Source: an uncultured Methanosarcinales archaeon (lineage in GTDB: Archaea; Nanobdellota; Nanobdellia; Woesearchaeales; 21-14-0-10-32-9). From it: a DNA stretch of 64,000 nucleotides. Positions within the stretch are counted from its first letter, which is position 1. Every line of letters starts with the position of its first letter. A program made the translations under genes and the position numbers. Shown in pieces: positions 16,720 through 63,635 of this stretch. Below the pieces are notes generated by a model that was not told the origin of the DNA, ran no database searches, and saw nothing but the letters and a program-made list of their open reading frames with translations. The stretch is taken from contig CAZCTY010000002.1 of NCBI GenBank assembly GCA_964501945.1, forward strand, positions 2,541 to 66,540. Direction: 5' to 3'.

Positions 16720-16839
16720 TCCCTCGGGGGAGATTTGAACTCCCAACCTTTCGGTTTCAGCTGACCATAAATCATCCAACCCGTTTGGGCAGTCAAATGG
16801 TTTCTACAGCCGAACGCTCTACCGTTGAGCTACCGAGGG
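16720..16839 (-). tRNA. tRNA-Tyr (anticodon GTA) interrupted by an intron of about 48 nt at the canonical 37/38 position
   Basis: The reverse complement reads CCCTCGG TA GCTC AACGGTA GAGC G TTCGG CTGTAG [48 nt] A CCGAA AGGTT GGGAG TTCAAAT CTCCC CCGAGGG A. It has the C1:G72 pair typical of archaeal/eukaryal tRNA-Tyr. Confidence 0.85.
16756..16803 (-). other. tRNA-Tyr intron (boundaries ambiguous by 1-3 nt because of flanking A residues)
   Basis: Insert AAACCATTTGACTGCCCAAACGGGTTGGATGATTTATGGTCAGCTGAA lies between anticodon-loop G37 and A38. ACCAT/ATGGT and exon GCTG/intron CAGC complementarities flank the junctions. Confidence 0.7.
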
Positions 16840-21914: not shown

Positions 21915-22688
21915 ATGCGCGGTGTATTTAAAAAAATATTATTGATTGGTGCAATTACAGGGTCTATGCTTTTACCTAAAAACGAGTACCAAATACAAGA
22001 TAGTAATAAAAATCTAGAAAACACAATAACAGCAGAAATTAAAAGAAATGAACTAGTAATAGATGCGAGTAGAAAGAATGTAGGCGTAGATTTTTACACA
22101 TTTTTTAGATACGTATACACAGATAAAGATTCAAGAACTTGCCCTGATAGCTACAGAGAATTAGAACCTAAAACGAAGCAAGATATAAAATTAGGACGCG
22201 CCCTTAAAGATTCATTACAAATTATATATGAATCAATGATACCAAATCATAAAAAAGAAGATAACTGGGGGCCGATGTTAAAGAGCGAGATGAGAATCCC
22301 TAATGGAACATATACGCCTTGGCACCAAGCATTAGACATATTCTCAAAGAACGGAACAAAAGTAATAGCACCTTTCTCAGGACTTGTAATTTCCTCAGGA
22401 GATATGTGGCGAGGAGAATATAATAACAATAAAATTACAAATTGGAACGGAAAAGGACTTACCATTAGAGGAGGAAACGGAGTTATAATATACAATCCCG
22501 AAGAGAGAGGATACATGTTAATAACGCACTTAGATGAAAACATAAAAGTTCAAGCAGGAGATTTTATAAGCAAAGGAAGCACCATTGGACGCATAGGCCC
22601 GACAGGAACTGCAAGTAGATTAGGACATGATAACCACATACACGTCGCATATAAATTACCTACAGAAGATAACTTATTAAAGCCATAA
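21915..22688 (+). CDS. secreted M23 (LytM/lysostaphin-type) metallopeptidase
   Basis: N-terminal hydrophobic signal KKILLIGAITGSMLL. HxxxD motif in WHQALD, HLDENIKVQAGDFISKGSTIGRIGPTG, and HxH in NHIHVAYK. Confidence 0.8.
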   Translation: MRGVFKKILLIGAITGSMLLPKNEYQIQDSNKNLENTITAEIKRNELVIDASRKNVGVDFYTFFRYVYTDKDSRTCPDSYRELEPKTKQDIKLGRALKDSLQIIYESMIPNHKKEDNWGPMLKSEMRIPNGTYTPWHQALDIFSKNGTKVIAPFSGLVISSGDMWRGEYNNNKITNWNGKGLTIRGGNGVIIYNPEERGYMLITHLDENIKVQAGDFISKGSTIGRIGPTGTASRLGHDNHIHVAYKLPTEDNLLKP

Positions 22689-22707: not shown

Positions 22708-24882
22708 TTAAGATGCATATTTTTTAACAATGCTTAAGATATCTTCTCCGTACTTAGAAACTTTTTGCTCGCCAAGACCCTTAATACTTAAAAGCTCACT
22801 ATTAGATAAAGGAACAAACTCAGATATTGCATAAATTGCAGAATCATGAATAATAGTAAATGGAGGCAGAGAATTTTTTTTAGCCAAATCCCGACGCCAA
22901 TTTTTTAATTCTTCAATTAATAATAATTTTGATTTAGAATCTATACGCGACTCATCAACCGTTTTATTTTCGCTATCAACCAATAAATCTTTTTTACCAT
23001 TACTTGAAAACATAAATGAAGCGCTACGCTTTTTAACATAGCCTTTCTCAGCGAGCCGCCTCATATCAGCAGAAATAAAATAAGTAGGATTCCTGCCAGA
23101 ATAAGTCATGACTAATTTATCCATCGCGCGACTAACAGCGACATAAAACAAGCGACGCTCCTCCTCTTCTTTATCATAATCTTGAATCTTTATCAATTCA
23201 GTTACAGGATGCTCGCTAGTCTTGCATGGAAAATTCATAGAATTACAACCAGTAACAAAAACAAGCTTTGCCTCAAGGCCTTTAATCGCGTGAACAGTTG
23301 CAAGAGTAACCTCGCCACGCTTTGCCTCAACTTTTTTAATCCTATCCTCAGTTTTAACAACGTGAGGAATATCGTTTTGCTTGAGTAAATTAGAAAATTC
23401 GTTTAACGCTTTATTAGTCCTTGCAAGAACAAATATATCATCCCTTAAAACATCAGTTCCAAGAATTGATTGAAGAACAAATAAACGCTCCTCTTGCTCA
23501 GATTTAAATTTTAAAAGTTTTAAAAAACCCTCATCTTGATTTACAGGCTCCAAATCAGGCATGTTAAGCTTTTTTATAGCCAAATTCATAAAGTCAACAA
23601 TTAATTTTTTAGAACGATAATTCTTAGTTAAAAAAATAACCTCACAACTAGGATGTTGCTGCTCAAATTCCATTATAAATTTTATATCAGAACCTCTCCA
23701 ACCAAAAATAGATTGACGAGGATCACCAACACAAAACAAGTTTTTAACATCTAAAACATTAACTAAATCAATCTGAGAAGAATTAACATCTTGATATTCA
23801 TCAATTAGAATATGATCAAATTCAGGAACCATAGAAGGATTATTTTTGAAAAATTTTAAAGCATCAAGCAATTGATCAGAAAAATCACGAAGACCACGCT
23901 CTTGCATGTATTCTTCAAGCGCCAAGCAAGTCTTATAAACAAGCCTCGCCCCACGCATAAAACTAGGACTCGCATCCTTAGTAAAATCTTCAAGACCACC
24001 TTGAGCCTTGAATGTATCAAGAACTAAAAAACAATCATTCATAAAAATAGCTGCGAGTTGCTCATCAGTTTTACCACGCCTCTGAGAGTGAGAAAAATAA
24101 GTATCAATAGCATCCCTCAAATCCAAACCTTGCTCTTCAAGCGCCCTTTTAATACCAATTATTTTATCCTTATAACGCATAACTCTAACAGGGCGATCAT
24201 AAATTTCATCATTGTGAATACGCAAAGTCTTCTCACAAAAAGAATTAAAAGTCTCAACGCGAGCATTAAAAATACCTGCTTGCTCTAAACGATTAATCAT
24301 TTCCTTTCTAGCCTTACGAGTAAAAGTAATAGCCAATATCTTAGACGGATTTACACCTTTATACCTAATTAAAAACTCCGCCCTCTTAGTTAAAACACGC
24401 GTCTTACCAGAACCCGCGCCAGCAACACATACAACTTTATTTGCAGGAGTTACAACAGCTTTTTTTTGCTCATCATTCAACCCAGTTAAAAAGAAATCAA
24501 AATTTTTAAAAAGCTCTTTTTCATCAAGAGAAATACTCGTTTCCTGATTGAATTTGAACCCAAGCTTACGCTTAAAAAAAGAAGGTTTTTTTAATTCATC
24601 AAAACCTTTCCTTGAAAGTCTTAAAACCTTCGCATATTTATTTATAGTGCTAAAAGATTCTTGCTCAATAAAACCATTCCTAATTAAAGAATCAATAACC
24701 GCGTTAAGCTCGTCTTTAGAGTATGCAAGCTCGCCAAAACAATTAAGTTCGTGAAGCTTATTACGCTCAATTGAAGGATTGTTAATATCACCTAATAACA
24801 TATCTGATAAAAGATTTTTACCAACATTGAAAGGAACTTCTGTTAAAGCTTTTAAAACAACCAAATAATCTTTCTCATCCAT
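22708..24882 (-). CDS. UvrD/PcrA/Rep-type SF1 helicase with an N-terminal RQC-like winged helix and a C-terminal HRDC domain
   Basis: Walker A VAGAGSGKTRVL, ILIDEYQDVN, VGDPRQSIFGWRG and TVHAIKGLE. The N-terminus LKALTEVPFNVGKNLLSDMLLGD...FGELAYSKDELNAVIDSLIRNGFIE is RQC-like. The C-terminus LKNWRRDLAKKNSLPPFTIIHDSAIYAISEFVPLSNSELLSIKGLGEQKVSKYGEDIL is HRDC-like. Confidence 0.85.
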   Translation of the reverse strand: MDEKDYLVVLKALTEVPFNVGKNLLSDMLLGDINNPSIERNKLHELNCFGELAYSKDELNAVIDSLIRNGFIEQESFSTINKYAKVLRLSRKGFDELKKPSFFKRKLGFKFNQETSISLDEKELFKNFDFFLTGLNDEQKKAVVTPANKVVCVAGAGSGKTRVLTKRAEFLIRYKGVNPSKILAITFTRKARKEMINRLEQAGIFNARVETFNSFCEKTLRIHNDEIYDRPVRVMRYKDKIIGIKRALEEQGLDLRDAIDTYFSHSQRRGKTDEQLAAIFMNDCFLVLDTFKAQGGLEDFTKDASPSFMRGARLVYKTCLALEEYMQERGLRDFSDQLLDALKFFKNNPSMVPEFDHILIDEYQDVNSSQIDLVNVLDVKNLFCVGDPRQSIFGWRGSDIKFIMEFEQQHPSCEVIFLTKNYRSKKLIVDFMNLAIKKLNMPDLEPVNQDEGFLKLLKFKSEQEERLFVLQSILGTDVLRDDIFVLARTNKALNEFSNLLKQNDIPHVVKTEDRIKKVEAKRGEVTLATVHAIKGLEAKLVFVTGCNSMNFPCKTSEHPVTELIKIQDYDKEEEERRLFYVAVSRAMDKLVMTYSGRNPTYFISADMRRLAEKGYVKKRSASFMFSSNGKKDLLVDSENKTVDESRIDSKSKLLLIEELKNWRRDLAKKNSLPPFTIIHDSAIYAISEFVPLSNSELLSIKGLGEQKVSKYGEDILSIVKKYAS

Positions 24883-51996: not shown

Positions 51997-52207
51997 CTAG
52001 AAGAACCAACCCTCTCTCCATTCTTCTTCGTATATGACGGGGAAACAAAAAATCGTTTATAAAGTTTTGTTTTTAATAGAATAATAAATGTTTTTTAGTT
52101 ATTGCTGAGTAATAAATATTATAAATGGAGAGTGATTTCTTAACACATAAAGCTTACACAAAAACTGTTGTGATTTAATTCAATTAATTTAAGTGAGAGG
52201 TCAATAC

Positions 52208-53332
52208 ATGAAGCTTAGACACAGAGAAATAGTTAATTCAGCGTGCATTTCAGCACTCCTAGTTATTAATGCAGCGAATTTTACAGAAGGAGATGAGCCT
52301 AGCTTGAAGTATTTGAGAAATGCAAAGAATACTTTAGAGACTGCTGTGAATAAAATGCCGAATTTTAGTGAAGGTTTTAAGAGAACATCTGATTTTTTTT
52401 TAAAAACGAAAGATAAATTAAAAGATGTCGCGAGTAGAATTGATTTTGGCCAAGATACAGATGAGGAATATTTTGAAAACGATAGCTTTGATTATGAAGC
52501 TTTGATTAATCGCGCATTAAAAAGCGATGAACATAACCTTGTTGATTCTGTTATAAAATTTGTTCCAAAAGATTTCCTTAGAGAATACATAGATAATGAA
52601 GCAAAAAATAGCAATCCTAATTATAATCGCTTAATGCTCGCATCAAGAACAGGCGAGGAAATTAGAGATAAGCGATTTAATAGCGGAAGAAATTTTAATG
52701 AATCACTTAGAAATATGGCCGCGAGTGCGAATGTTAGACCTGGATCTTTTGGAAGCCGAGGAGAACTTAAAGAATTTTTAGATTTGTATAAAGATGATTT
52801 CGTAGAGGTTGCAAAAGAGTATGATTTAAATCCTTCTCTGCTCGCAAGCATTGCAAGCGTTGAGAGTCGAGGAAGAACGTTTACAATTTCAAATACAGGA
52901 GCACTCGGAGCGTTTGGACAGACAAGCTATGCATATATGCCTCAAACTAATTGGTTTGATGGAAATGGACGAGATGCAATAAATCCTTTTCATACATTAG
53001 AGGCCATGGATAGAGCCGGCGATATGATTAGAGGATTAATTGATTTATATGCACGAGTTGATGATGAACACCACACATTAGCATTAACAACATACAATCA
53101 AGGAGAAGCCGTTGTTAATAGAGCCATAAGATTGGCAAGACAAGAAGGCATTTTTGAACCTAAAAAAATAATTCAACACACAAATAATACAAGACGAGAT
53201 AGAAATATTTTTTCAATCGCAACACGTGAGGGAAGAAATTACTCCGCGCATATTCAAAGAGAAAATGTTATTATGAGCGAGTATTTTAATACTCAATTTG
53301 ATAATCTTGCAAATACTCATTCATATGAATAG
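52208..53332 (+). CDS. SLT-domain (GH23) lytic transglycosylase with an N-terminal region of about 200 aa of unknown function
   Basis: LLASIASVESRGRTFTISNTGALGAFGQTS (E-S...S..GA.G..Q signature) and LTTYNQGEAVVNRAI (AYNxG motif). The ATG at 52208 has a GAGAGG RBS upstream. The track ORF starts at GTG 52193. Weak hydrophobic N-terminus ACISALLVINAANF. Confidence 0.75.
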   Translation: MKLRHREIVNSACISALLVINAANFTEGDEPSLKYLRNAKNTLETAVNKMPNFSEGFKRTSDFFLKTKDKLKDVASRIDFGQDTDEEYFENDSFDYEALINRALKSDEHNLVDSVIKFVPKDFLREYIDNEAKNSNPNYNRLMLASRTGEEIRDKRFNSGRNFNESLRNMAASANVRPGSFGSRGELKEFLDLYKDDFVEVAKEYDLNPSLLASIASVESRGRTFTISNTGALGAFGQTSYAYMPQTNWFDGNGRDAINPFHTLEAMDRAGDMIRGLIDLYARVDDEHHTLALTTYNQGEAVVNRAIRLARQEGIFEPKKIIQHTNNTRRDRNIFSIATREGRNYSAHIQRENVIMSEYFNTQFDNLANTHSYE

Positions 53333-53381
53333 AAAACAATAAAAATGAGAAGAACAATACATAAGTATATAGGTGATTTAT

Positions 53382-54050
53382 ATGAGTAAAAAAATACCTA
53401 AGCCCTTAGAGGAGATGATTAGTAGAGCAGAAGCATTAGATGTATATACATTCGCACTCAACCACAGACATGAAGACTTCATTATAAACCCAAAGCAAGA
53501 ACTCATTAAAGAAAAAGGACTTGACGCTGCAAGAGCTTATGTTAAAACAGTAGAAGGCCGAGAAGATTACGGTAAACGAGGAGCTGATAAGCTTAAAGAG
53601 ATTTTTTTTGAAGAGTTTAATGTTGATAAAAGCAATTATAATAAATCAGAACTAGAAACATTAACTAAAACACTTTATGGAATGAATAAGAAAAATATTT
53701 CTGAGGCAGTTGCAAGACACGGCTTAGAATTAGATGTTGAAACGTATAAAGAAGAATTTTTAGGCAATCATTTAAGCCAAATTAAACAATATGTTGTAAA
53801 TCACCACATAAAAAATTATGATGCAGAACACAACCCTGCAATACTTGACCACATATTACATGAAAATCATAAAACATATTTTAGAGAAGACGTATTACCC
53901 GAGCTTAAAACTGATCGCGCGAAAGATTATGTAGTCAACTCTTTTTTAAGATGGAAACTTGAAAAAAAGCAACAATCACCCCTAGGAGTTAAGGACATAA
54001 AAGATACGGGGTTTTCTGAGTATTTGAAAAAAGAATACTTGAAACAATAA
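53382..54050 (+). CDS. hypothetical protein, paralogue A (no signal peptide)
   Basis: The ATG at 53382 has AGGTGA upstream (the track start GTG 53373 lies inside that RBS). It shares a QELIKEKGLDAARAY motif with the next gene. Confidence 0.45.
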   Translation: MSKKIPKPLEEMISRAEALDVYTFALNHRHEDFIINPKQELIKEKGLDAARAYVKTVEGREDYGKRGADKLKEIFFEEFNVDKSNYNKSELETLTKTLYGMNKKNISEAVARHGLELDVETYKEEFLGNHLSQIKQYVVNHHIKNYDAEHNPAILDHILHENHKTYFREDVLPELKTDRAKDYVVNSFLRWKLEKKQQSPLGVKDIKDTGFSEYLKKEYLKQ

Positions 54051-54200: not shown

Positions 54201-54845
54201 ATGTCAGATAAAAAAGATGAACCAACACCAGCCGAAAAGGCACAAAAGAAAATAGTCAAAGGATACAATGAAACAGTCCCAGGCGCAGTATTAGATTTTA
54301 AACACAAACAAGAAAAAGTACCCTACGATATCAGAGAACAGTTAATAAAAGATAAAGGCGCACCTGGAGCAGCAAAGTTCCTAAATACCGAAGATGGACA
54401 AAAATACATGATAGAACACCTAAAAGCAGGAAGCGAAAAAGTAGGATATGAAAGCCTGAAAAAAATAGGAAAAGTAGACGACTACTTAGCTGCACAATTC
54501 ATGGGAAACTTCATGCTAAACCAACAAGCACTAGCACAAGAAGTAGGCAGAAACGGATCACAATTCGACGGCGGAAATTACATGAAAGTACTACAACCAA
54601 ACATAGGAAACGTACAAGAAGGAGCTTTACTTAGAGTTGCAAACAGTTACGACCCAAAACTATCATCAGAATTACTTAAGAAAACAGGCACAGCAAAGTA
54701 CATGAAAGATACAAAAGACGTAAGCCCAACACAAGTAACACAAATAGTAGGTCTTGATGAAGGTGGAAAAAACCCACAAGGACCAAGCACACTAAGACAA
54801 CTAGGACTTGAAGATAAATTAAACGAAAAATACAGATTAAACTAA
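54201..54845 (+). CDS. hypothetical protein, paralogue B (no signal peptide)
   Basis: GAGGT RBS 9 nt upstream. EQLIKDKGAPGAAKF aligns with paralogue A, and the two are similar in length. Confidence 0.45.
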   Translation: MSDKKDEPTPAEKAQKKIVKGYNETVPGAVLDFKHKQEKVPYDIREQLIKDKGAPGAAKFLNTEDGQKYMIEHLKAGSEKVGYESLKKIGKVDDYLAAQFMGNFMLNQQALAQEVGRNGSQFDGGNYMKVLQPNIGNVQEGALLRVANSYDPKLSSELLKKTGTAKYMKDTKDVSPTQVTQIVGLDEGGKNPQGPSTLRQLGLEDKLNEKYRLN

Positions 54846-54942: not shown

Positions 54943-57144
54943 TTAAGATTTAGACACAGTGAATGTTTGAGGATACCTTTTAGATGCATTGTTTACCAAA
55001 TCAAACACTTCCAAATCTTGATGAAGCAACAATTCCTGATAATCATAAGACGGATAGACAACATCAAAATAATCTACAGATAACAAATCATCTTTAGATA
55101 TGTTAAAAGTAAATTCATCCCTCAATTCCATGAACCCAAGAACTAAAGATTCATTAAAAACAATCTTTTCTAAGAAAACTTCCTCATCATCAACAAATAA
55201 GCCACTAATAAAACCATCAGGACCAACTTCATAAGTCTGATTTTCAATTACCCAAGGCTCATCTAAATCTAAAGAACTAACAACTTGAACGTTATACCTA
55301 CCCGGGACAAACCCCACAACATCAGACTCATGAGGCGCTTCAAAATCAACAACCCTAAAAAACTCAGAATCACCAGGCTCTTGAACCCTACTAAAAATAA
55401 CAACAACAGATTCATCATCATAAGGCAAATGCGTAGACTCACTCAACGCAACAGACCACTCCCTTGAAAAATCAGGCTCATCAGGAAGAGGATAAAGACC
55501 TAATTGAGGAGAGAATCTTAAAGTTCCAACACTAACCTCAACTTCTCTTTCAGGATAAACCTCAAAATCAACTTCAACAACGCCATCATCAACAATAAAG
55601 TCTTTAGTAACAGGAGATGCGAAGTAAGAATAATCATTAATAGATAAAGTGCCCCCAATACAAGGAGGAACATAAGTTTCAACATATACTTCATCCTCAT
55701 CTAATACCTCAAGATAAATAGATTCAGAACCACAACTATACTGAACAGATAAATCATAAACAGGATCAGATGTGTACGCATCAAATAAATTAATCCTAAC
55801 AGGAACAGTCCTCTGATCAACCGCTCCAAAACCACTCTCAAAGACATCATCCTCATCAAAATCAAACTCAGGGAAATCATCAAGCAAAGAAACCCTAGGC
55901 TCATTATTAACCAGATTAACAGTTACAGGGAATTGAAAAAAGAAACCATCCCCACCAAAAGAATCAGATTCTTCTAAAGTTATAAGAATAGGATAAACTA
56001 AGTCATAAGCATACTCATAACGCGTAACCCCAACCTCACCAATTAAAGGCATATCAACAGAACTACCCGCGTCCCTAACAGGACCAACCATGTCCCCCGA
56101 ACTTGGAAGAATATCTAAAAACATAGGCCACGAGCTAAAGAAATTAAACCTTACTTTAGTACTCTCAAGAACCTCAGGCTCAACTAATTCCAAAGGAAAT
56201 TGAAACTGAGAATAAATACCATCCAAATAAGGATTTTGCGTCATAGGAACATAAGAATCCCTCGAACCCCTAATTTGAAAATAAGGAACAGTCTCTTGAA
56301 GAGTTTGTTTTAACTCTTCCTCAACTGATGATATAGACCAAAACCTAAAGGAAGGCCCCATCTCAACATCAGGAGAGATAGGAGGAATATCAGCATCCTT
56401 GCCACCCATACTCAAAATAGATAAAATGAGACGAGTAGATTTTTCTAAGAAAGGCTCCTCATCTAAGAACTGAGTTTGAAGAGCAATTTGAGACGCTAAT
56501 TCATAAACATCCCTAAAACGAACATCAACAGTATTACTAAAACGACTAATAGATGAATCAAGGCCAGACGGAAATACAATAGATAAAGGATAATTTAAAC
56601 CAATGAAAACATCATCATCCCTAAAACGAACATCCGCAGACGGCTCTGCAGGAATAACCTCAAAGTCCTCATAATCCTCAAAATTATTAACACACTCCAA
56701 AATATTTTGCTCAACGTAATTACCAACCTGATACGCAATAGAACCACGACCACCAGATAGAGGAGGCACATTAAAAACATAAGAACTACCCTCATCCCTA
56801 GGAGAACCATCAAAATACAACCAAAAAGGCAAAACCCTATCACTACCCTCAAATATTTCTAAACCGGTATTCAAATAAGCAGGCTCATAACCATACATAA
56901 CATTACTCGCATCAGAAAAACCACCAGACCTACCAAGATCTTCAAGTACTTCACGACCAAGATCAGCAATACAATGATTAACACTATTCACCAAAGGCTG
57001 CAATTGAGCATCAACATCCTCAGAGAATTCATCTTCAACATCTAAATCAGGATCAACTTGAAAGATAAAAAAGAAAGCAATAAATGCTAAAATAAATACA
57101 ATCAAACCCAAAATGACAAATATAGTAACCTGACCTTTTTTCAT
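54943..57144 (-). CDS. 733-aa acidic, Lys-poor surface protein with an archaeal class III (type IV pilin-like) signal peptide
   Basis: The N-terminus MKKGQVTIFVILGLIVFILAFIAFFFIF has a basic n-region, Gly at -1, Gln at +1 and a long hydrophobic stretch. The ATG lies 2 nt after the upstream gene's stop, with GGTGGGGG inside the upstream gene's last codons. Confidence 0.6.
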   Translation of the reverse strand: MKKGQVTIFVILGLIVFILAFIAFFFIFQVDPDLDVEDEFSEDVDAQLQPLVNSVNHCIADLGREVLEDLGRSGGFSDASNVMYGYEPAYLNTGLEIFEGSDRVLPFWLYFDGSPRDEGSSYVFNVPPLSGGRGSIAYQVGNYVEQNILECVNNFEDYEDFEVIPAEPSADVRFRDDDVFIGLNYPLSIVFPSGLDSSISRFSNTVDVRFRDVYELASQIALQTQFLDEEPFLEKSTRLILSILSMGGKDADIPPISPDVEMGPSFRFWSISSVEEELKQTLQETVPYFQIRGSRDSYVPMTQNPYLDGIYSQFQFPLELVEPEVLESTKVRFNFFSSWPMFLDILPSSGDMVGPVRDAGSSVDMPLIGEVGVTRYEYAYDLVYPILITLEESDSFGGDGFFFQFPVTVNLVNNEPRVSLLDDFPEFDFDEDDVFESGFGAVDQRTVPVRINLFDAYTSDPVYDLSVQYSCGSESIYLEVLDEDEVYVETYVPPCIGGTLSINDYSYFASPVTKDFIVDDGVVEVDFEVYPEREVEVSVGTLRFSPQLGLYPLPDEPDFSREWSVALSESTHLPYDDESVVVIFSRVQEPGDSEFFRVVDFEAPHESDVVGFVPGRYNVQVVSSLDLDEPWVIENQTYEVGPDGFISGLFVDDEEVFLEKIVFNESLVLGFMELRDEFTFNISKDDLLSVDYFDVVYPSYDYQELLLHQDLEVFDLVNNASKRYPQTFTVSKS

Positions 57145-57146
57145 TA

Positions 57147-60100
57147 CTACTCAACCCCCACCCTTTGACAAAGCCTATTATCTCTAACACTTACAGCGTG
57201 AAAATAATCAGACAACCTATTAGTTTCAAATTCAATACAAAACTTCTCATAAACCCTCTCAGAACTGAAATCAGAAGGATTACTAAAACCACCAAAACTA
57301 ACCCTAGTGTTAGCCCCAGAAATTAAAATATCATCTCCTGCGACATTATTAGTGTAATCGTGCTCCCTACCAGAAGAATCATACGCAACGAGCCTAAACC
57401 TCAAGCCCTCAAGCTGAGCCTCCACCCCACCTTGAATCCAATAATCATAAAAACCTAATTCATCAGGAGAAGAAGTCCTCCTCGCAGCAATGAAAGCACC
57501 AGGCCTAGTACCACCACCAGCCCTAGTAGTAATAGAACCAGACGCACCCGCAGGAGGCGCAACAGGCTCATTGAAAGAATCATCACAAAAAGCCCTCTCA
57601 GGCTCAGTCACATAATCTAAAGACATAGCCAACTGACCCATAGCAGTATCATCCCTCCACTCACGATTATCAATACCAACAATGTCCGCTGCAATAGATA
57701 ATCCAAGCGCGCCCTCACGCATACGACCAAAAGAAGACATAGACTCATAACGCTCAGCTTGCTCAGCCATGTATTCATTAAACGCAATTTTTATACCATC
57801 CATAGCCTCACCAAACCAAGACCTACTACCCTCAGTTATCTCATCATTCATAGCACGCCTAAGCTGCCTACGATTAAGATCGTCAATATCATCAATATTA
57901 TTATCATCTAAAAGCTCTCGAATAAATTCCTCACTATACCCCGTTTCTCTTGAAATAATGTTCCAATCCAAATCATTTAAAGAATCCCTACGCCCCGCAT
58001 AATTATCTAAGACATCAAATACAGGCTGAAGCTCATCACGCCTATTTTGCTCATTAGTCAAACGCCTCGCCTTCTCCCACCTAATCTCAGCAGCCCTAAC
58101 CGCATAATCATACGCGACCTCGTTTTCAGCATAATAAGCAGCATAATACTCATTTATGTACTCCTTCATAATATCCTCGGCATTGTTATCTGCCAATAAA
58201 CCTAAAAAGCCCATTTCATCAGGCATCGAACCAAGATTAGCCTCAGCTTCATCTAAAAAATTATTTAACTCATCAAGCTCATTTTCTAATCTTTCACGAG
58301 TACCACTATCTAAAGCCTCCCAATCAGTTTCCTCTAACTCATATTGTATTGCAGATAACACACCAATATAAACAGGATCATAACTATCTAAAGCATCTAA
58401 ATCATCAAAAGCATTTTGCAAAGCTTCCTTTCGAACACCATCTACACCTTCCCAATCAGTATTCTCCAATTCATCACGAATAGCACCCATCCTCATAGAC
58501 GTATCTATATAAAATTGATCTAAAATTTCTCTTCGCTCACCCGCTAAATCAGTTAAACTATCATAACGAGAATCTAAGACATAACCCATTTGATTACCTT
58601 CAGGACCATAAACTAATAACTGCCTACCAATATCCACAGTATCCTCAGAAGTCATAATTGTCCTACCAATGAGCTGATCATCACCATCATATATGTAACA
58701 AGTATTACCCGTACACATAGCCCTATCCCCACCATCACCAAGAGGCATCTCCGTAGGTTCATATTCATCAAGGAATGTTTCTCTACCATAACCAAAACCT
58801 TCACGCTGAGCATCCATCTCCCAATTCCTCTGAATCATACCAATCGCACCAGTTAAAGCAGGAGAACACCTATCTTTAACATCATCACTCATACCAAAAC
58901 CCATCATTAATTGATCAACTGTACTTCTAATACGCTGATATTGAACAGGCAAACTCATAGCAGTTTGAGCAACAACACAAGCCCCATGAGCACTCGCAGA
59001 ACCAGTAGATAATAACCTACAAGCATAAGGGATCGCCCCACCAAGAAGAGCTGCAGGATCACGAATCATATTTTGAACGTCTTGCGCCGCATTAGTAAAC
59101 ATGTTAGTGAAAGGTAAAGCATACAAAACATTACCCGCCGTTCTAATACAATGATCATAACCACGATTACGCTCACAATGCTCAACAGATAAACCCATAG
59201 TACTAACACCTTCATTTAAACAAAGAGCATAATTACACTCAATACCCTGAGCAACCCTCCTATGATAAACAAAAGCAGGAAGACACATAGTCGCAACAGC
59301 CACATATTCACTCTTATATGGATTAAATAACTCCCTACTAGACATACTAAGATTACTCGCTATATCATCAACCCTCAAAGTCTCTCTTAAATCACCAAGA
59401 CCAATAGTGTCACTGTAAAAAGAATCAACCCAAGAAGATTCACACGCAATCGCCTCACACACAGGAACACCCAACTCAGCTAAAGTACCATAAGTCTCAT
59501 CTAACCCCGCAGTAACCGGCTGAAGAGTTTGACCTAAAGGCGCACCAACAACAGATGCCTCCGCGGCGGCCTGAGTCGCACCAAGCGCACCCCTAGCAGT
59601 ATCTGCTGAATGAGTAGCCCTACAAAGACCTTGAATCATATTAAGCGATTGCTCTAAACCATCAAGACGCCTATCAGTACGCTCAACACGCTCATTAACA
59701 GCATCAATTGTTTCATAAATTTTCTCATCAAGAGTGTAACCTTCTTCTAAATCAAATTTAACAGTGAAGTTTTTTTGCTCAGGAATCGCATAAAAATAAC
59801 CAAGATCAACAGACCTCAAATCTAAGCCACAATTAAATTCCAAAGTATCATAATCAGCATAACGATGATCATCACGAATAGTAAGACCAGCCCCCCTAAG
59901 TGTTAAACGAAGATACGCCACGTTAGATTCCTTATTAACATCTAATAACCTCAAATTAGAAACATCCCCCCTACGACCAGTTTCATTCTCAACAACAGGC
60001 AAACACCTAAAATTAGAAATATCAACAGATACCAAATCAGCATCCCCAATTAATTCAACTTCAAGGAAAATATCCCTACTATAAGCCAAGTTCCTAATCG

Positions 60101-61199
60101 TAAGAGAGTCAGCTTGCTGATTAACATTACCAACAGACCAAAAATCAGGAACCTCATCAGATTGAACTTCAACAATGTCAACAGAAACAGAGGAGTGAAC
60201 CTCATTACCAGCAAGATCTGAGAAAATAACAGGAATTTCATAAACTCCCTTCTCAGAGACAAAAGAGGTAACATCAATAGAACAAACAAAAACACCATCC
60301 CTATCAACACATTCACGAGAAAGATTAGCAGAGTTCACAGGATCACCAATGACCTTCATTTCAACAACAGGACTAACATCCTCAGATACATTAGCCCTAA
60401 TAGTAAAAGAATCAGAAACCCTCGTAATACCTAAATCAGAAGACTCATCAACACCAATAAACTCAACTACAGGAGGAGAAGAATCACAAATAAATTCACC
60501 AACCTCAGACGGAGAAACACGCATACCCGCATCATCCCAACTACGCTGATTATCAATACGCGCAGTAATACTGCTACCATCAGCACAAGAAAAAGAAGCT
60601 GAAGTAAAACCCCTACAAGTAAAATCCTCACAATCACTAAGTAAAGCAGTACTCTGACCGATACGCGCCCTCACATTACCTCTACTAAAACCAACATCAG
60701 AGTTTTCTAATACAACAGATAAGTTGTTAATACCAGAAGATACATAACAAGTACCATCATGACACTGATTAGACGTAAAAGACGAGACACGAGGAGTAGA
60801 AGTTGCAAGTTGCAAAGAAACATTTTCTTGCACGATGACACCTTGCCTGCTAAAATAGAATTCAAATACACCATCCCCATCGTTTTTTAATAAACGCAAG
60901 TTATTAATCCTACAATTAAATACACCATTTTCCTCGACGCAGTTAGGCGCAATACTATTGTAATTAGCAATATTTGAATCATAACCAAAAGCCTCATTTA
61001 CACCAGAAGCATCAACGACTAAGTTAGAAGCATTAGCTGAAAATTCTAAGTGAACAATAATAAGATTACCCCTAGAATAATGAGTAACCTCACTACCCGC
61101 AGCAGTGAATGAAAGATCACTAATTTCTAAGGAGAGCGCAGGCGATGAGAGTAATAATAAGAAAGACAAAAAAAACAATGAATATACTATAAATTTCAA
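57147..61199 (-). CDS. 1350-aa secreted, Cys-rich, acidic giant protein of unknown family
   Basis: TTG start with GGTG 6 nt upstream. Sec-type signal MKFIVYSLFFLSFLLLLSSPALS/LE. The N-terminal half is beta-rich with paired Cys, followed by a central Cys-rich helical block, acidic 44-aa repeats and a beta-rich C-terminus. No TM anchor. Confidence 0.6.
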   Translation of the reverse strand: MKFIVYSLFFLSFLLLLSSPALSLEISDLSFTAAGSEVTHYSRGNLIIVHLEFSANASNLVVDASGVNEAFGYDSNIANYNSIAPNCVEENGVFNCRINNLRLLKNDGDGVFEFYFSRQGVIVQENVSLQLATSTPRVSSFTSNQCHDGTCYVSSGINNLSVVLENSDVGFSRGNVRARIGQSTALLSDCEDFTCRGFTSASFSCADGSSITARIDNQRSWDDAGMRVSPSEVGEFICDSSPPVVEFIGVDESSDLGITRVSDSFTIRANVSEDVSPVVEMKVIGDPVNSANLSRECVDRDGVFVCSIDVTSFVSEKGVYEIPVIFSDLAGNEVHSSVSVDIVEVQSDEVPDFWSVGNVNQQADSLTIRNLAYSRDIFLEVELIGDADLVSVDISNFRCLPVVENETGRRGDVSNLRLLDVNKESNVAYLRLTLRGAGLTIRDDHRYADYDTLEFNCGLDLRSVDLGYFYAIPEQKNFTVKFDLEEGYTLDEKIYETIDAVNERVERTDRRLDGLEQSLNMIQGLCRATHSADTARGALGATQAAAEASVVGAPLGQTLQPVTAGLDETYGTLAELGVPVCEAIACESSWVDSFYSDTIGLGDLRETLRVDDIASNLSMSSRELFNPYKSEYVAVATMCLPAFVYHRRVAQGIECNYALCLNEGVSTMGLSVEHCERNRGYDHCIRTAGNVLYALPFTNMFTNAAQDVQNMIRDPAALLGGAIPYACRLLSTGSASAHGACVVAQTAMSLPVQYQRIRSTVDQLMMGFGMSDDVKDRCSPALTGAIGMIQRNWEMDAQREGFGYGRETFLDEYEPTEMPLGDGGDRAMCTGNTCYIYDGDDQLIGRTIMTSEDTVDIGRQLLVYGPEGNQMGYVLDSRYDSLTDLAGERREILDQFYIDTSMRMGAIRDELENTDWEGVDGVRKEALQNAFDDLDALDSYDPVYIGVLSAIQYELEETDWEALDSGTRERLENELDELNNFLDEAEANLGSMPDEMGFLGLLADNNAEDIMKEYINEYYAAYYAENEVAYDYAVRAAEIRWEKARRLTNEQNRRDELQPVFDVLDNYAGRRDSLNDLDWNIISRETGYSEEFIRELLDDNNIDDIDDLNRRQLRRAMNDEITEGSRSWFGEAMDGIKIAFNEYMAEQAERYESMSSFGRMREGALGLSIAADIVGIDNREWRDDTAMGQLAMSLDYVTEPERAFCDDSFNEPVAPPAGASGSITTRAGGGTRPGAFIAARRTSSPDELGFYDYWIQGGVEAQLEGLRFRLVAYDSSGREHDYTNNVAGDDILISGANTRVSFGGFSNPSDFSSERVYEKFCIEFETNRLSDYFHAVSVRDNRLCQRVGVE

Positions 61200-61292: not shown

Positions 61293-62321
61293 TTACTTAT
61301 TAATCGATAAAACTTCTCTATTGAAAAACTTAATTACTAATACACAAAGAGCAACAGCAATAGGCCCAATTATCAAACCAATAACACCAAATAGTTTTAT
61401 ACCACCAAAAATAGATAATAAAACAAGAATAGGATGCATACCCGACCTCTTACCAATAATCCTTGGACGCAAGATATTCTCAATTGAAAACATTACAATA
61501 GAACCAAACAATAATAACCCAATACCACCCCAAAGAGAACCATACATTATCTCAAGGATACCTGCAGGAGCCCAAACAGCAGGCGTTCCAAGAATAGGAA
61601 TAAACGCCAAAATAGCCATTATAAAACCCCAAAAAACAGGATTACTCAAACCAAAAGCAAAGAAAGCAAGACCCCCAAGAATACCTTGAAGAATAGCAAT
61701 TAAAAGCTGACCATACATGACACCATAGAGAATTTTTTTAGATTCAACACTGATTTGATCTTTATGACTTTTAGATAAAGGAACAAGATCCATAATACTC
61801 ATCAAAATATGATCCCCATCTTTGAAAATATAATACAATAAAAACAACATAACAAACAAACCAATAAGCACATCAGCCAGAGAACCAATCACTTCAATAA
61901 TGGATGCAGATAAAGCCTCATTTAAATTATCCATTAAAACAAGCGCAATTTCCCTTGTAGAAACCTCAAAGCCAAGAGTATTTTCAACAAATAAATCAAC
62001 ATCAGCAAAGTCATACCCCGCAAGAGACCTATACGTAGAAGTCGCCTCTTTTACAAGACTATTAACAAAGAAAAAAGAACCCGCAATAATTAAAATAAAA
62101 ATAAGAAAAACAAGCATTAACGATGAACGCTTAGCACTAATACCCCTGCGTTGCAAGTACTTGTTTAAAGGAAAAAAGAAAATACCAAAAACACCACCCA
62201 TAATTAAAGCATAAAGAAAAGGCCTAAAAATAATAATTAATGAAACAATAGATAAAATATAGAGCAATAAGAATATGTAAAAAACATTTTTATTACCCTC
62301 ACCTTTTCTTTTATTACTCAA
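61293..62321 (-). CDS. AI-2E family (PerM/TqsA, UPF0118) transporter
   Basis: Polytopic protein with YGVMYGQLLIAILQGILGGLAFFAFGLSNPVFWGFIMAILAFIPILGTPAVWAP. Confidence 0.8.
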   Translation of the reverse strand: MSNKRKGEGNKNVFYIFLLLYILSIVSLIIIFRPFLYALIMGGVFGIFFFPLNKYLQRRGISAKRSSLMLVFLIFILIIAGSFFFVNSLVKEATSTYRSLAGYDFADVDLFVENTLGFEVSTREIALVLMDNLNEALSASIIEVIGSLADVLIGLFVMLFLLYYIFKDGDHILMSIMDLVPLSKSHKDQISVESKKILYGVMYGQLLIAILQGILGGLAFFAFGLSNPVFWGFIMAILAFIPILGTPAVWAPAGILEIMYGSLWGGIGLLLFGSIVMFSIENILRPRIIGKRSGMHPILVLLSIFGGIKLFGVIGLIIGPIAVALCVLVIKFFNREVLSINK

Positions 62322-62396: not shown

Positions 62397-63635
62397 TTAA
62401 AACTTTTTTATAATAACCGATTTAACAGTGTCATGCTCGCTTTCTTTAATCGTGATTAAGACTTTTTGACTATTAATAGAGTATGATTTGTTAACATCAA
62501 CACTATCAAGACGCTCAGCTAAGAACTTAGATATAGGCTTGAACTCATTAGTAATAGGCAGTGAAACATTGAGCTTTTTATTAATCGTCCTGATAAAAGT
62601 TTTACCCTTAACAAGCCACTCACCATTACCCAAGGATTTGATTAAAGAACTAACACGATCTTCCTCATCATATATATCACCCACTAACTCCTCCAAGATA
62701 TCCTCAACTGTAACTAAACCAATAACTTTTTTTCTAGCACCTAAAACAATAGCTAAATGATTATTCCTCTGCTGAAGCTCAGTTAAAATCTCATCAATTT
62801 TTTTATGCTTATTTACAAAGTAAACAGGACTCATAATAGATTTGAGCTTAACATCATTATTACCCTTATAGATTTCACCCATAACATCATGAATGGTTAA
62901 CATACCCCGAATTTTTTCCCTACTAGATGCATGAATCGGAATCCTAGTAAAACCATGCTCAATTATTAGAGGCGTAGCCTGCTCAACAGACAAGTTCCAA
63001 TCAAGCGAGAAAATACTACTCGCAGGAGTCATAATCTTGTGAACAGAAACATCATCCAATTTGAAAGCCTGTGTGATTATATTTTTCTCATTTTTTTTAA
63101 TCTCGCCCTCCTTCGCGCCAACATGAACCAAGTATTTAATCTCGCCCTCAGTTACAAGAGGATCAGGATTCTTATTACCAGATAAGTTATTGACAAGAAT
63201 GCTCAAATAACTAAAAGCTTTAACAAAAGGATAAAATAAATAATACAAAAATACGAGGATAGGCGAGATTGCAAGAGCAATTGTTTTAGAATTGTTTACA
63301 ACAAAAGTTTTTGGAATTATCTCACCAAAAGTTAAAATTACAAGAGTCATAACACCAGTGATTAAACTAATACTAGTATTTTGAAAGAAATCAAAGGAAA
63401 TTTTAGTTGCAAGAGCAGAACTTGCAACGTTAGTAATATTATTACCAATAAGAATAGTTATCAGAGAATCGTTAGGATTATTTTTGAGCTTTAATAAAGC
63501 ATGAGAGTTCCTAACATTTTTTTGAGCGAGCTGCTCAGCTTTTAATTTAGATGTGCCAACTATTGCAACCTCAGAGCCACTGAAAAAAGCAGATAGCGCA
63601 ATCGTTATTATTATTAAAATAAATTCTCCCTGCAT
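62397..63635 (-). CDS. CNNM/CorC/HlyC-family transporter (DUF21, CBS pair, CorC_HlyC)
   Basis: N-terminus IIITIALSAFFSGSEVAIV (DUF21), then GEIIPK, a CBS pair (IMTPASSIFSL.., GLVTVEDILEELVGDIYDE) and a C-terminal transporter-associated domain. Confidence 0.8.
   Translation of the reverse strand: MQGEFILIIITIALSAFFSGSEVAIVGTSKLKAEQLAQKNVRNSHALLKLKNNPNDSLITILIGNNITNVASSALATKISFDFFQNTSISLITGVMTLVILTFGEIIPKTFVVNNSKTIALAISPILVFLYYLFYPFVKAFSYLSILVNNLSGNKNPDPLVTEGEIKYLVHVGAKEGEIKKNEKNIITQAFKLDDVSVHKIMTPASSIFSLDWNLSVEQATPLIIEHGFTRIPIHASSREKIRGMLTIHDVMGEIYKGNNDVKLKSIMSPVYFVNKHKKIDEILTELQQRNNHLAIVLGARKKVIGLVTVEDILEELVGDIYDEEDRVSSLIKSLGNGEWLVKGKTFIRTINKKLNVSLPITNEFKPISKFLAERLDSVDVNKSYSINSQKVLITIKESEHDTVKSVIIKKF

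Follow-up and report, generated by a model that had tools for sequence, protein, structure and literature searches.

A compact SLT-type lytic transglycosylase predicted in a Woesearchaeales archaeon without recognisable murein synthesis

The gene and its chromosomal setting

The window analysed here (the whole 64,000-nucleotide stretch, from an uncultured archaeon placed in the Woesearchaeales) carries on its plus strand, at 52208..53332, a gene listed among the open reading frames (ORFs) as encoding a protein of 374 amino acids, with the stop codon inside that span. A Pfam search of the ORF placed an SLT domain (PF01464) at 52808..53149 (+), corresponding to residues 206-319 of a 379-residue frame, with 30.4 bits against a curated cut-off of 21.3 and an E-value of 3.1e-7. 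A six-frame scan of the whole assembly returned a single SLT domain, that of this gene (31.3 bits), and the protein had no match in NCBIfam. By its sequence, the gene encodes a member of the Pfam SLT / CAZy GH23 (glycoside hydrolase family 23) family-1 lytic transglycosylases with a predicted enzymatic role. An earlier note, made from the letters of this DNA, had proposed that an archaeon encodes an SLT lytic transglycosylase whose domain is intact. The Pfam match above cut-off, the bacterial family-1 fold and the archaeal flanks bear this out.

The open frame extends over 52193-53332 (+) and would encode 379 amino acids if read from an upstream GTG at 52193. Translation likely starts at the ATG at 52208, and hardly at the GTG, because a Shine-Dalgarno-like run (GAGAGGT) lies 6 nt upstream of the ATG and the database copy of the protein (P0001, 374 amino acids) begins there. 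Both observations agree with the start coordinate given in the earlier note.

The SLT gene is located in a 68-kb contig, between the exosome/proteasome/RNase P superoperon and genes for surface proteins of DPANN (Diapherotrites, Parvarchaeota, Aenigmarchaeota, Nanoarchaeota as well as Nanohaloarchaeota) type. Upstream, on the opposite strand, lie the superoperon genes for Rpp14/Pop5, proteasome alpha, SBDS, Rrp4 and Rrp41/Rrp42 and, further on, those for aIF5B and a HerA-like ATPase. The assembly comprises 1.02 Mb in 53 contigs and is estimated to be 97% complete with 0.14% contamination. When the proteasome gene was used as query it retrieved 80 loci from metagenome-assembled genomes, most of them named Candidatus Woesearchaeota, Nanoarchaeota or Nanoarchaeia (best identity 91%). 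The composition of the SLT gene is that of its surroundings: its G+C content is 34.5% vs 33.6% for the genome, its third-position G+C (0.22) is like that of the neighbours, and its tetranucleotide distance to the genome mean falls at the 65th percentile of same-sized genome windows. In a congeneric genome (G007, equal to loci L003/L009) and in an ENA contig (L006) the genes follow one another in the same way: proteasome, Rpp14, SLT, small helical protein(s), pilin-type protein. A 5'-truncated Logan contig (L007) holds the downstream half only, running from SLT through the helical proteins to a pair of surface proteins of 733 and 1350 residues. Among the 80 proteasome-anchored loci, one has an SLT family member at the same position.

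Contamination and recent insertion are thus excluded for practical purposes, because the flanks are archaeal, the composition is typical of the genome and the synteny is kept in independent assemblies. This also disposes of the bacterial contamination that the earlier note had left as an alternative, to be judged for example by coverage or k-mer profile. Accordingly, we give almost no credence to the idea that the gene arose from faulty assembly or binning, or came in lately as a bacterial or viral insert such as a T7 gp16-like virion-associated transglycosylase. Distant profile and PHROG matches to phage lytic tail and internal virion proteins would fit such an origin, but no viral genes lie nearby, tblastn against 50,697 phage records gave no match, and the nearest relatives of the protein are encoded on contigs whose other genes match Woesearchaeota genes. 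Moreover, T7 gp16-like phage transglycosylases are encoded by viruses, whereas the window gene stands among housekeeping and surface genes and has only distant PHROG domain matches.

Fold, active site and relatives

An AlphaFold2 model built on 24 relatives reached a mean predicted local distance difference test (pLDDT) of 84. It has an all-helical body over residues 95-365 (52490..53302, +) made of a helical extension, the SLT catalytic domain and a C-terminal helix. Confidence there exceeds 90 at most positions and falls to 76-80 at residues ~321-340. When the model was compared with the PDB by Foldseek, all top 50 matches were bacterial lytic transglycosylases (MltF, MltC, MltE, Slt, Cj0843, MltD) with a probability of 1.00. 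The best structural match was MltF and the best sequence-profile match was MltC. A search of the PDB with the single sequence was marginal (best match MltD, E 0.16), so that the family profile was needed. The profile matched MltC (~5e-10) and T7 gp16 (1.8e-9), and also MltD, MltE, MltF, goose lysozyme and Slt70. As modelled, the fold is goose-lysozyme-like, as in bacterial family-1 lytic transglycosylases.

The active-site motifs were examined in an alignment of the 24 relatives. Motif I lies in the context ASVESRGR (52853-52876, +), where the codon 52862..52864 (+) specifies the predicted catalytic acid/base glutamate, E219 of the 374-residue protein (E224 of the 379-residue frame), followed by serine. 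E219 is invariant and S220 nearly so, and alignment pairs them with the ES of MltC, MltD and T7 gp16. Motif III, TYNQGE (53090..53107, +), is the equivalent of AYNxG and aligns with AYNAGE of MltD and AYNQGE of T7 gp16; Y296 and G299 are invariant and N297 nearly invariant. Both the glutamate context and the TYNQG motif had been pointed out in the earlier note and are conserved. Its reading of motif II as S..GA.G..Q was off by one residue. The segment SNTGALGAFGQT (52889..52924, +), which contains S-N-T-G-A-L-G-A-F-G-Q, has the form S..GA.G...Q, so that the glutamine comes one residue after its place in the canonical S..GA.GLMQ, and a glycine fills that place. The canonical position is occupied by Gln in about one third of the 24 relatives and by Gly in the rest. 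An INPF motif (52979..52990, +; N259 nearly invariant, P260 invariant) is a signature of the subfamily and of its LysM+SLT relatives. In profile-to-PDB alignments, the EGRNY motif of the C-terminal helix (53228..53242, +) corresponds to AESRNY in MltC and EEGRNY in T7 gp16. S228, G234 and L277 are also invariant, and R269 nearly invariant.

The invariance or near-invariance of active-site residues across the relatives points to purifying selection. Judged from this alignment, the active site is under selection, with one family-wide departure in motif II. It is therefore very unlikely that the protein lacks catalytic activity or does no more than bind glycan, for instance as an adhesin for bacterial walls. 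A modest Pfam score and the out-of-register glutamine would suit such a protein, but Glu-Ser and YNxG show no or almost no variation among relatives that share as little as 20% identity, and the Gln/Gly variation is family-wide, with the canonical Gln retained in some members.

Residues 1-25 (MKLRHREIVNSACISALLVINAANF; 52208..52282, +; modelled as a helix over residues 2-25) are signal-like, with a basic n-region followed by a moderately hydrophobic h-region of 10-13 residues. The N-terminus had been called weakly hydrophobic in the earlier note, and its Kyte-Doolittle maxima, 2.2 over 11 residues and 1.54 over 19, agree with this. The same pattern (a K/R-rich start, 10-13 hydrophobic residues, then N..N[FY]) is found in all core family members, and VINA|A is a possible signal cleavage site. 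We infer that this segment is a putative Sec signal peptide or signal anchor. Two other export signals were considered for the SLT protein and rejected: a class-III (pilin-type) signal, since no conserved Gly precedes the hydrophobic stretch, and a lipobox, since VNSAC is too near the N-terminus and is not conserved. The relatives P0010, with a lipobox-like LISC, and P0040 may be lipoproteins.

Residues 30-94 (52295..52489, +; about 65 residues) form a K/E/D-rich stretch of low confidence (pLDDT 41-66), which is largely a protein-specific insertion and is gapped in the closest relatives (P0002-P0004). Residues 95-200 are modelled with confidence as a helical extension that is conserved both within the family and in the LysM+SLT proteins nearest to it. 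The ~200-residue N-terminal region that the earlier note left unassigned can thus be described in part, residues 1-25 as signal-like segment and residues ~95-200 as helical extension. The motif DSVIKFVP (52544..52567, +) does not vary among core family members. In the multiple alignment it coincides with the final strand of the LysM domain of the nearest relatives, and it may be what is left of such a domain.

An exhaustive HMMER search over 1.84 billion cluster representatives delimited a core SLT subfamily: about 11 clusters pass E<1e-30, and the majority match over the full length. In the next tier (P0012-P0021) the shared region runs from about residue 105 onward, and most members have one or two LysM domains N-terminal to it. 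Two LysM+SLT relatives (508 and 534 amino acids) were traced to metagenome contigs (L122-L125) with a G+C content of 27-28%. These contigs encode a pyruvate phosphate dikinase and a UvrD-type helicase that are 62% and 41% identical to the copies of this genome, and a radical-SAM gene 47-49% identical to Woesearchaeota loci. They also encode a methyl-accepting chemotaxis protein, which is unusual for DPANN. Several other matches are identical to proteins of sampled Woesearchaeales genomes. A scan of genome contigs with a four-sequence alignment found no relative. Because the LysM+SLT relatives are on Woesearchaeota-like contigs and other matches are identical to Woesearchaeales proteins, the SLT family looks like a diversification within DPANN, with any bacterial donor further back.

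SLT domains as such are not rare in this order, contrary to what the earlier note had implied, and the phenomenon is already published. PF01464 was found in 220 of 401 Woesearchaeales species genomes (55%) and in 162 of the 281 of high quality. Many carry more than one copy, and the frames range from 150 to more than 2,400 amino acids. The LysM-less subfamily described here is restricted to four of the 401, namely this genome (G000) and G007 and G006, all of the same genus, and G122.

Target and deployment of the enzyme

Both this genome and three relatives with members of the SLT family lack GT51 and SEDS, and SEDS is present in only 2 of the 401 Woesearchaeales genomes (0.5%). The premise of the earlier note that the archaeon makes no murein thus holds, and in the absence of murein polymerases from the archaeon and its order the substrate would have to be foreign, that is, the bacterial cell wall. 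One of the two SEDS-positive genomes of the order, G188, contains two strong SEDS (FtsW/RodA) copies, at C10:17913-19013 and C13:60-1088 (325 and 295 bits). One of them has an in-frame TGA, and they may reflect bin contamination (4% estimated) or a real exception.

Three further murein-type hydrolase domains were found in the assembly. A Peptidase_M23 protein of 257 amino acids with a signal-like N-terminus is encoded in the window at 21915..22688 (+; PF01551, 45 bits vs a cut-off of 28.7). Another contig (C6, locus L128 1-3199, minus strand) carries three co-directional genes. The first encodes a protein of 191 amino acids with a pilin-type N-terminus (MKKTNKKGS...), the second a 394-residue Amidase_2 protein (93 bits) with the same pilin-type N-terminus (MKKTNKKGAVMYYWLLLIL...), and the third, next to Amidase_2, a protein of at least 478 amino acids with a signal peptide and an MltA-like 3D domain. 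A genome of 1 Mb can thus hold four different murein-type hydrolase domains (SLT, M23, Amidase_2 and 3D) with no murein synthesis genes, and this is the strongest argument for bacterial peptidoglycan as the target. The LysM domains of the nearest SLT relatives also count toward murein as substrate. Two gene contexts may be recorded here. The M23 gene is convergent with a gene for a UvrD/RQC/HRDC-type helicase at 22708-24882 (-), and on the distant DPANN contig L122 a LysM+SLT gene likewise lies near the orthologous helicase.

It is unlikely that the enzyme acts on a different glycan, such as chitin, chito-oligosaccharides or a glycan of the archaeal surface. Chitinases do occur within GH23. 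MltE was crystallised with chitopentaose (PDB 4hjy, among the Foldseek matches), motif II departs from the canonical form, and the LysM domain present in relatives binds chitin as well as murein (PMC12352652). Nevertheless, the same small genome encodes Amidase_2 (MurNAc-L-Ala amidase, where MurNAc is N-acetylmuramic acid), M23 and an MltA-like 3D domain, all of them specific for murein, and the structural neighbours are all murein transglycosylases. Pseudomurein has beta-1,3 links to N-acetyltalosaminuronic acid, a sugar that has no C6-OH and cannot give a 1,6-anhydro product.

We therefore favour, with a probability of about 0.65, a reading of the protein as an exported family-1 (GH23, SLT-type) lytic transglycosylase that breaches the wall of a bacterial partner or prey at a contact site. 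The enzyme most likely cuts bacterial peptidoglycan outside the cell. Its short basic and hydrophobic N-terminus would direct it through Sec to the cell surface or the medium, where the helical lysozyme-like domain would bind a peptidoglycan glycan strand. By analogy with the established mechanism of the family, Glu219 would protonate the glycosidic oxygen between MurNAc and beta-1,4-linked N-acetylglucosamine (GlcNAc; MurNAc-beta-1,4-GlcNAc) and then activate the C6-OH of MurNAc, so that the strand is cut and left with a 1,6-anhydro-MurNAc end. It would probably act jointly with the M23 endopeptidase, the pilin-like Amidase_2 and the MltA-like 3D-domain protein, the likely purpose being to loosen or breach the wall of the partner or prey where the cells touch. 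The adjacent pilin-anchored pair of 733- and 1350-residue surface proteins may take part, and any nutrients gained from released wall fragments would be incidental or of secondary importance. Export finds support in the signal-like N-terminus conserved in the family and in the pilin-type N-termini of Amidase_2 and of the 733-residue neighbour.

Several observations weigh against this interpretation. The Pfam score is modest (30 bits), the motif-II glutamine is shifted by one with Gly in its place in most family members, and a Pfam search found no LysM or other recognisable wall-binding domain in the SLT protein. The signal segment is a weak one, and relatives have only a poor cleavage site in it. 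The link to the surface-protein pair is an adjacency in one narrow clade, and in G006 and G122 the family member is located elsewhere. Finally, AnmK was not found in this genome or in the three relatives. The anhydro-muropeptide product would therefore have no recognised catabolic route, which weakens the nutrient part of the interpretation and not the wall-breaching part.

The last point also bears on an alternative that we consider doubtful, in which a secreted enzyme digests peptidoglycan debris from dead bacteria and the fragments, especially the amino acids of stem peptides, feed an auxotrophic cell. This would require neither contact with a live host nor any link to the neighbouring surface proteins. 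Its enzymology would be the same as that of wall breaching, and all bond types would be covered: glycan by SLT and 3D, amide by Amidase_2 and peptide by M23. A small protein without LysM or other anchor also fits a diffusible enzyme, and it has been suggested that DPANN use peptidoglycan as a nutrient (PMC11537232). However, besides the missing AnmK, Amidase_2 is on a pilin-type anchor and the SLT gene lies beside the pilin-anchored pair in four loci, which argues for deployment at the cell surface rather than free secretion.

Downstream neighbours and known systems

The SLT gene is followed by two genes for helical proteins without signal peptides, d1 (225 amino acids; 53373..54050, +) and d2 (214 amino acids; 54201..54845, +). 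The two are distant paralogues (BLASTP E 4e-4, 20% identity across the full length), and proteins of this type, in one to three copies, lie beside the SLT gene in every syntenic locus. Neither had a match in Pfam, NCBIfam or PHROG, and an AlphaFold2 model of d1 of mediocre quality (pLDDT 72) gave no PDB fold match at E<1. A role of d1 as a known inhibitor or immunity protein was considered and, with no family match and no PDB fold match, finds no support.

Convergent to SLT, d1 and d2, at 54943..61199 (-), is the gene pair for a 733-residue protein with a pilin-type N-terminus (MKKGQVTIF...) and a 1350-residue secreted protein. The pair had no Pfam match. It adjoins the SLT gene in all four close syntenic loci.

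To our knowledge, the hosts of all cultivated DPANN are archaea. That many DPANN may instead interact with bacteria, or prey on them, is suggested at the genomic level mainly by murein-cutting enzymes in genomes free of murein synthesis, and the proportions of sampled Woesearchaeales species with SLT (55%) and with SEDS (0.5%) put numbers to that idea. More tentatively, the genus might live on bacteria and not on archaea, with SLT, Amidase_2, 3D and M23 forming a distributed wall-breaching kit that works with the 733/1350 pair, and with d1 and d2 as dedicated partners. Should this be so, one could imagine the pair as a cross-domain contact apparatus, of a kind without experimental description so far. 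The cytoplasmic d1 and d2 might then conceivably serve, for example, as chaperones or regulators of the enzyme.

As cited in a later paper (PMC8204110), Rinke 2013 and Castelle 2015 had already reported murein-like lytic transglycosylases in Woesearchaeota and Pacearchaeota, and AR20 of Castelle 2015 is another such case. Castelle et al. (2021) described large extracellular murein-like transglycosylase proteins of up to ~3,000 amino acids (fam00969; PMC8204110), and Vigneron et al. (2022) read the transglycosylases of Woesearchaeota genomes from Lake A as tools of a predatory lifestyle (PMC9723730). An attack of these enzymes on bacteria has thus been proposed (PMC8204110, PMC9723730), and murein-like transglycosylases were mentioned again for DPANN genomes of oxygen-deficient zones. 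In the literature consulted, no biochemical test of a DPANN transglycosylase was found. Killing of bacteria by archaeal peptidoglycan hydrolases was shown experimentally for the haloarchaeon Halogranum salarium (Strock et al., 2025; PMC12352652).

The window protein resembles the fam00969-type proteins in lineage, catalytic domain, predicted extracellular location, origin from genomes without murein synthesis and proposed bacterial-wall target. These are, however, giant multi-domain proteins, whereas it has 374 amino acids with one catalytic domain and belongs to a separate, narrow subfamily. With Escherichia coli MltC and MltF/MltE it has in common the ES motif, YNxG and a C-terminal E-x-R-N-Y helix. 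Those enzymes are lipoproteins of the periplasm and remodel the wall of the cell that makes them, whereas the window protein comes from a murein-free archaeon, is without their DUF3393 and ABC-type substrate-binding modules and carries Gly where motif II canonically has Gln. Pseudomonas aeruginosa MltD (PDB 8rhe/8rhf), the best single-sequence PDB match, combines LysM and SLT, as do the nearest relatives of the window protein. LysM is C-terminal in MltD and N-terminal in these relatives, and was not detected in the window protein, where DSVIKFVP is its possible remnant. The M23 enzymes of H. salarium are likewise archaeal, secreted (here by prediction), aimed at bacterial peptidoglycan and patchily distributed. 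In contrast, they are endopeptidases with PG_binding_1 from another phylum and are experimentally validated, whereas the window protein is a predicted enzyme.

Since the concept is already published and SLT occurs in over half of the order, this case is an ordinary new example that leaves the picture unchanged. New here are the small LysM-less subfamily, the figures on how common SLT and SEDS are, and the finding that one genome has a kit of four enzymes, a modest added value. As a compact protein of 374 residues, the enzyme should be easy to express and assay.

Two other features of the window deserve mention. Beyond the 733/1350 pair, a protein with CNNM / CBS / CorC_HlyC domains is encoded at 62397-63635 (-), with a gene for an AI-2E family transporter beside it (61293-62321). 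It is of the 'TlyC' type, which Vigneron et al. (2022; PMC9723730) listed for 'vampiristic' Woesearchaeota as a toxin that forms pores. A toxin reading of the protein at 62397-63635 is doubtful, because its domain set is that of CorB/CorC-type Mg2+/Co2+ transporters. At 16720-16839 (-), adjoining tRNA-Lys and tRNA-Asp, Rfam gave a 120-nt tRNA match (59.5 bits) that ARAGORN did not report; it is probably an intron-containing archaeal tRNA.

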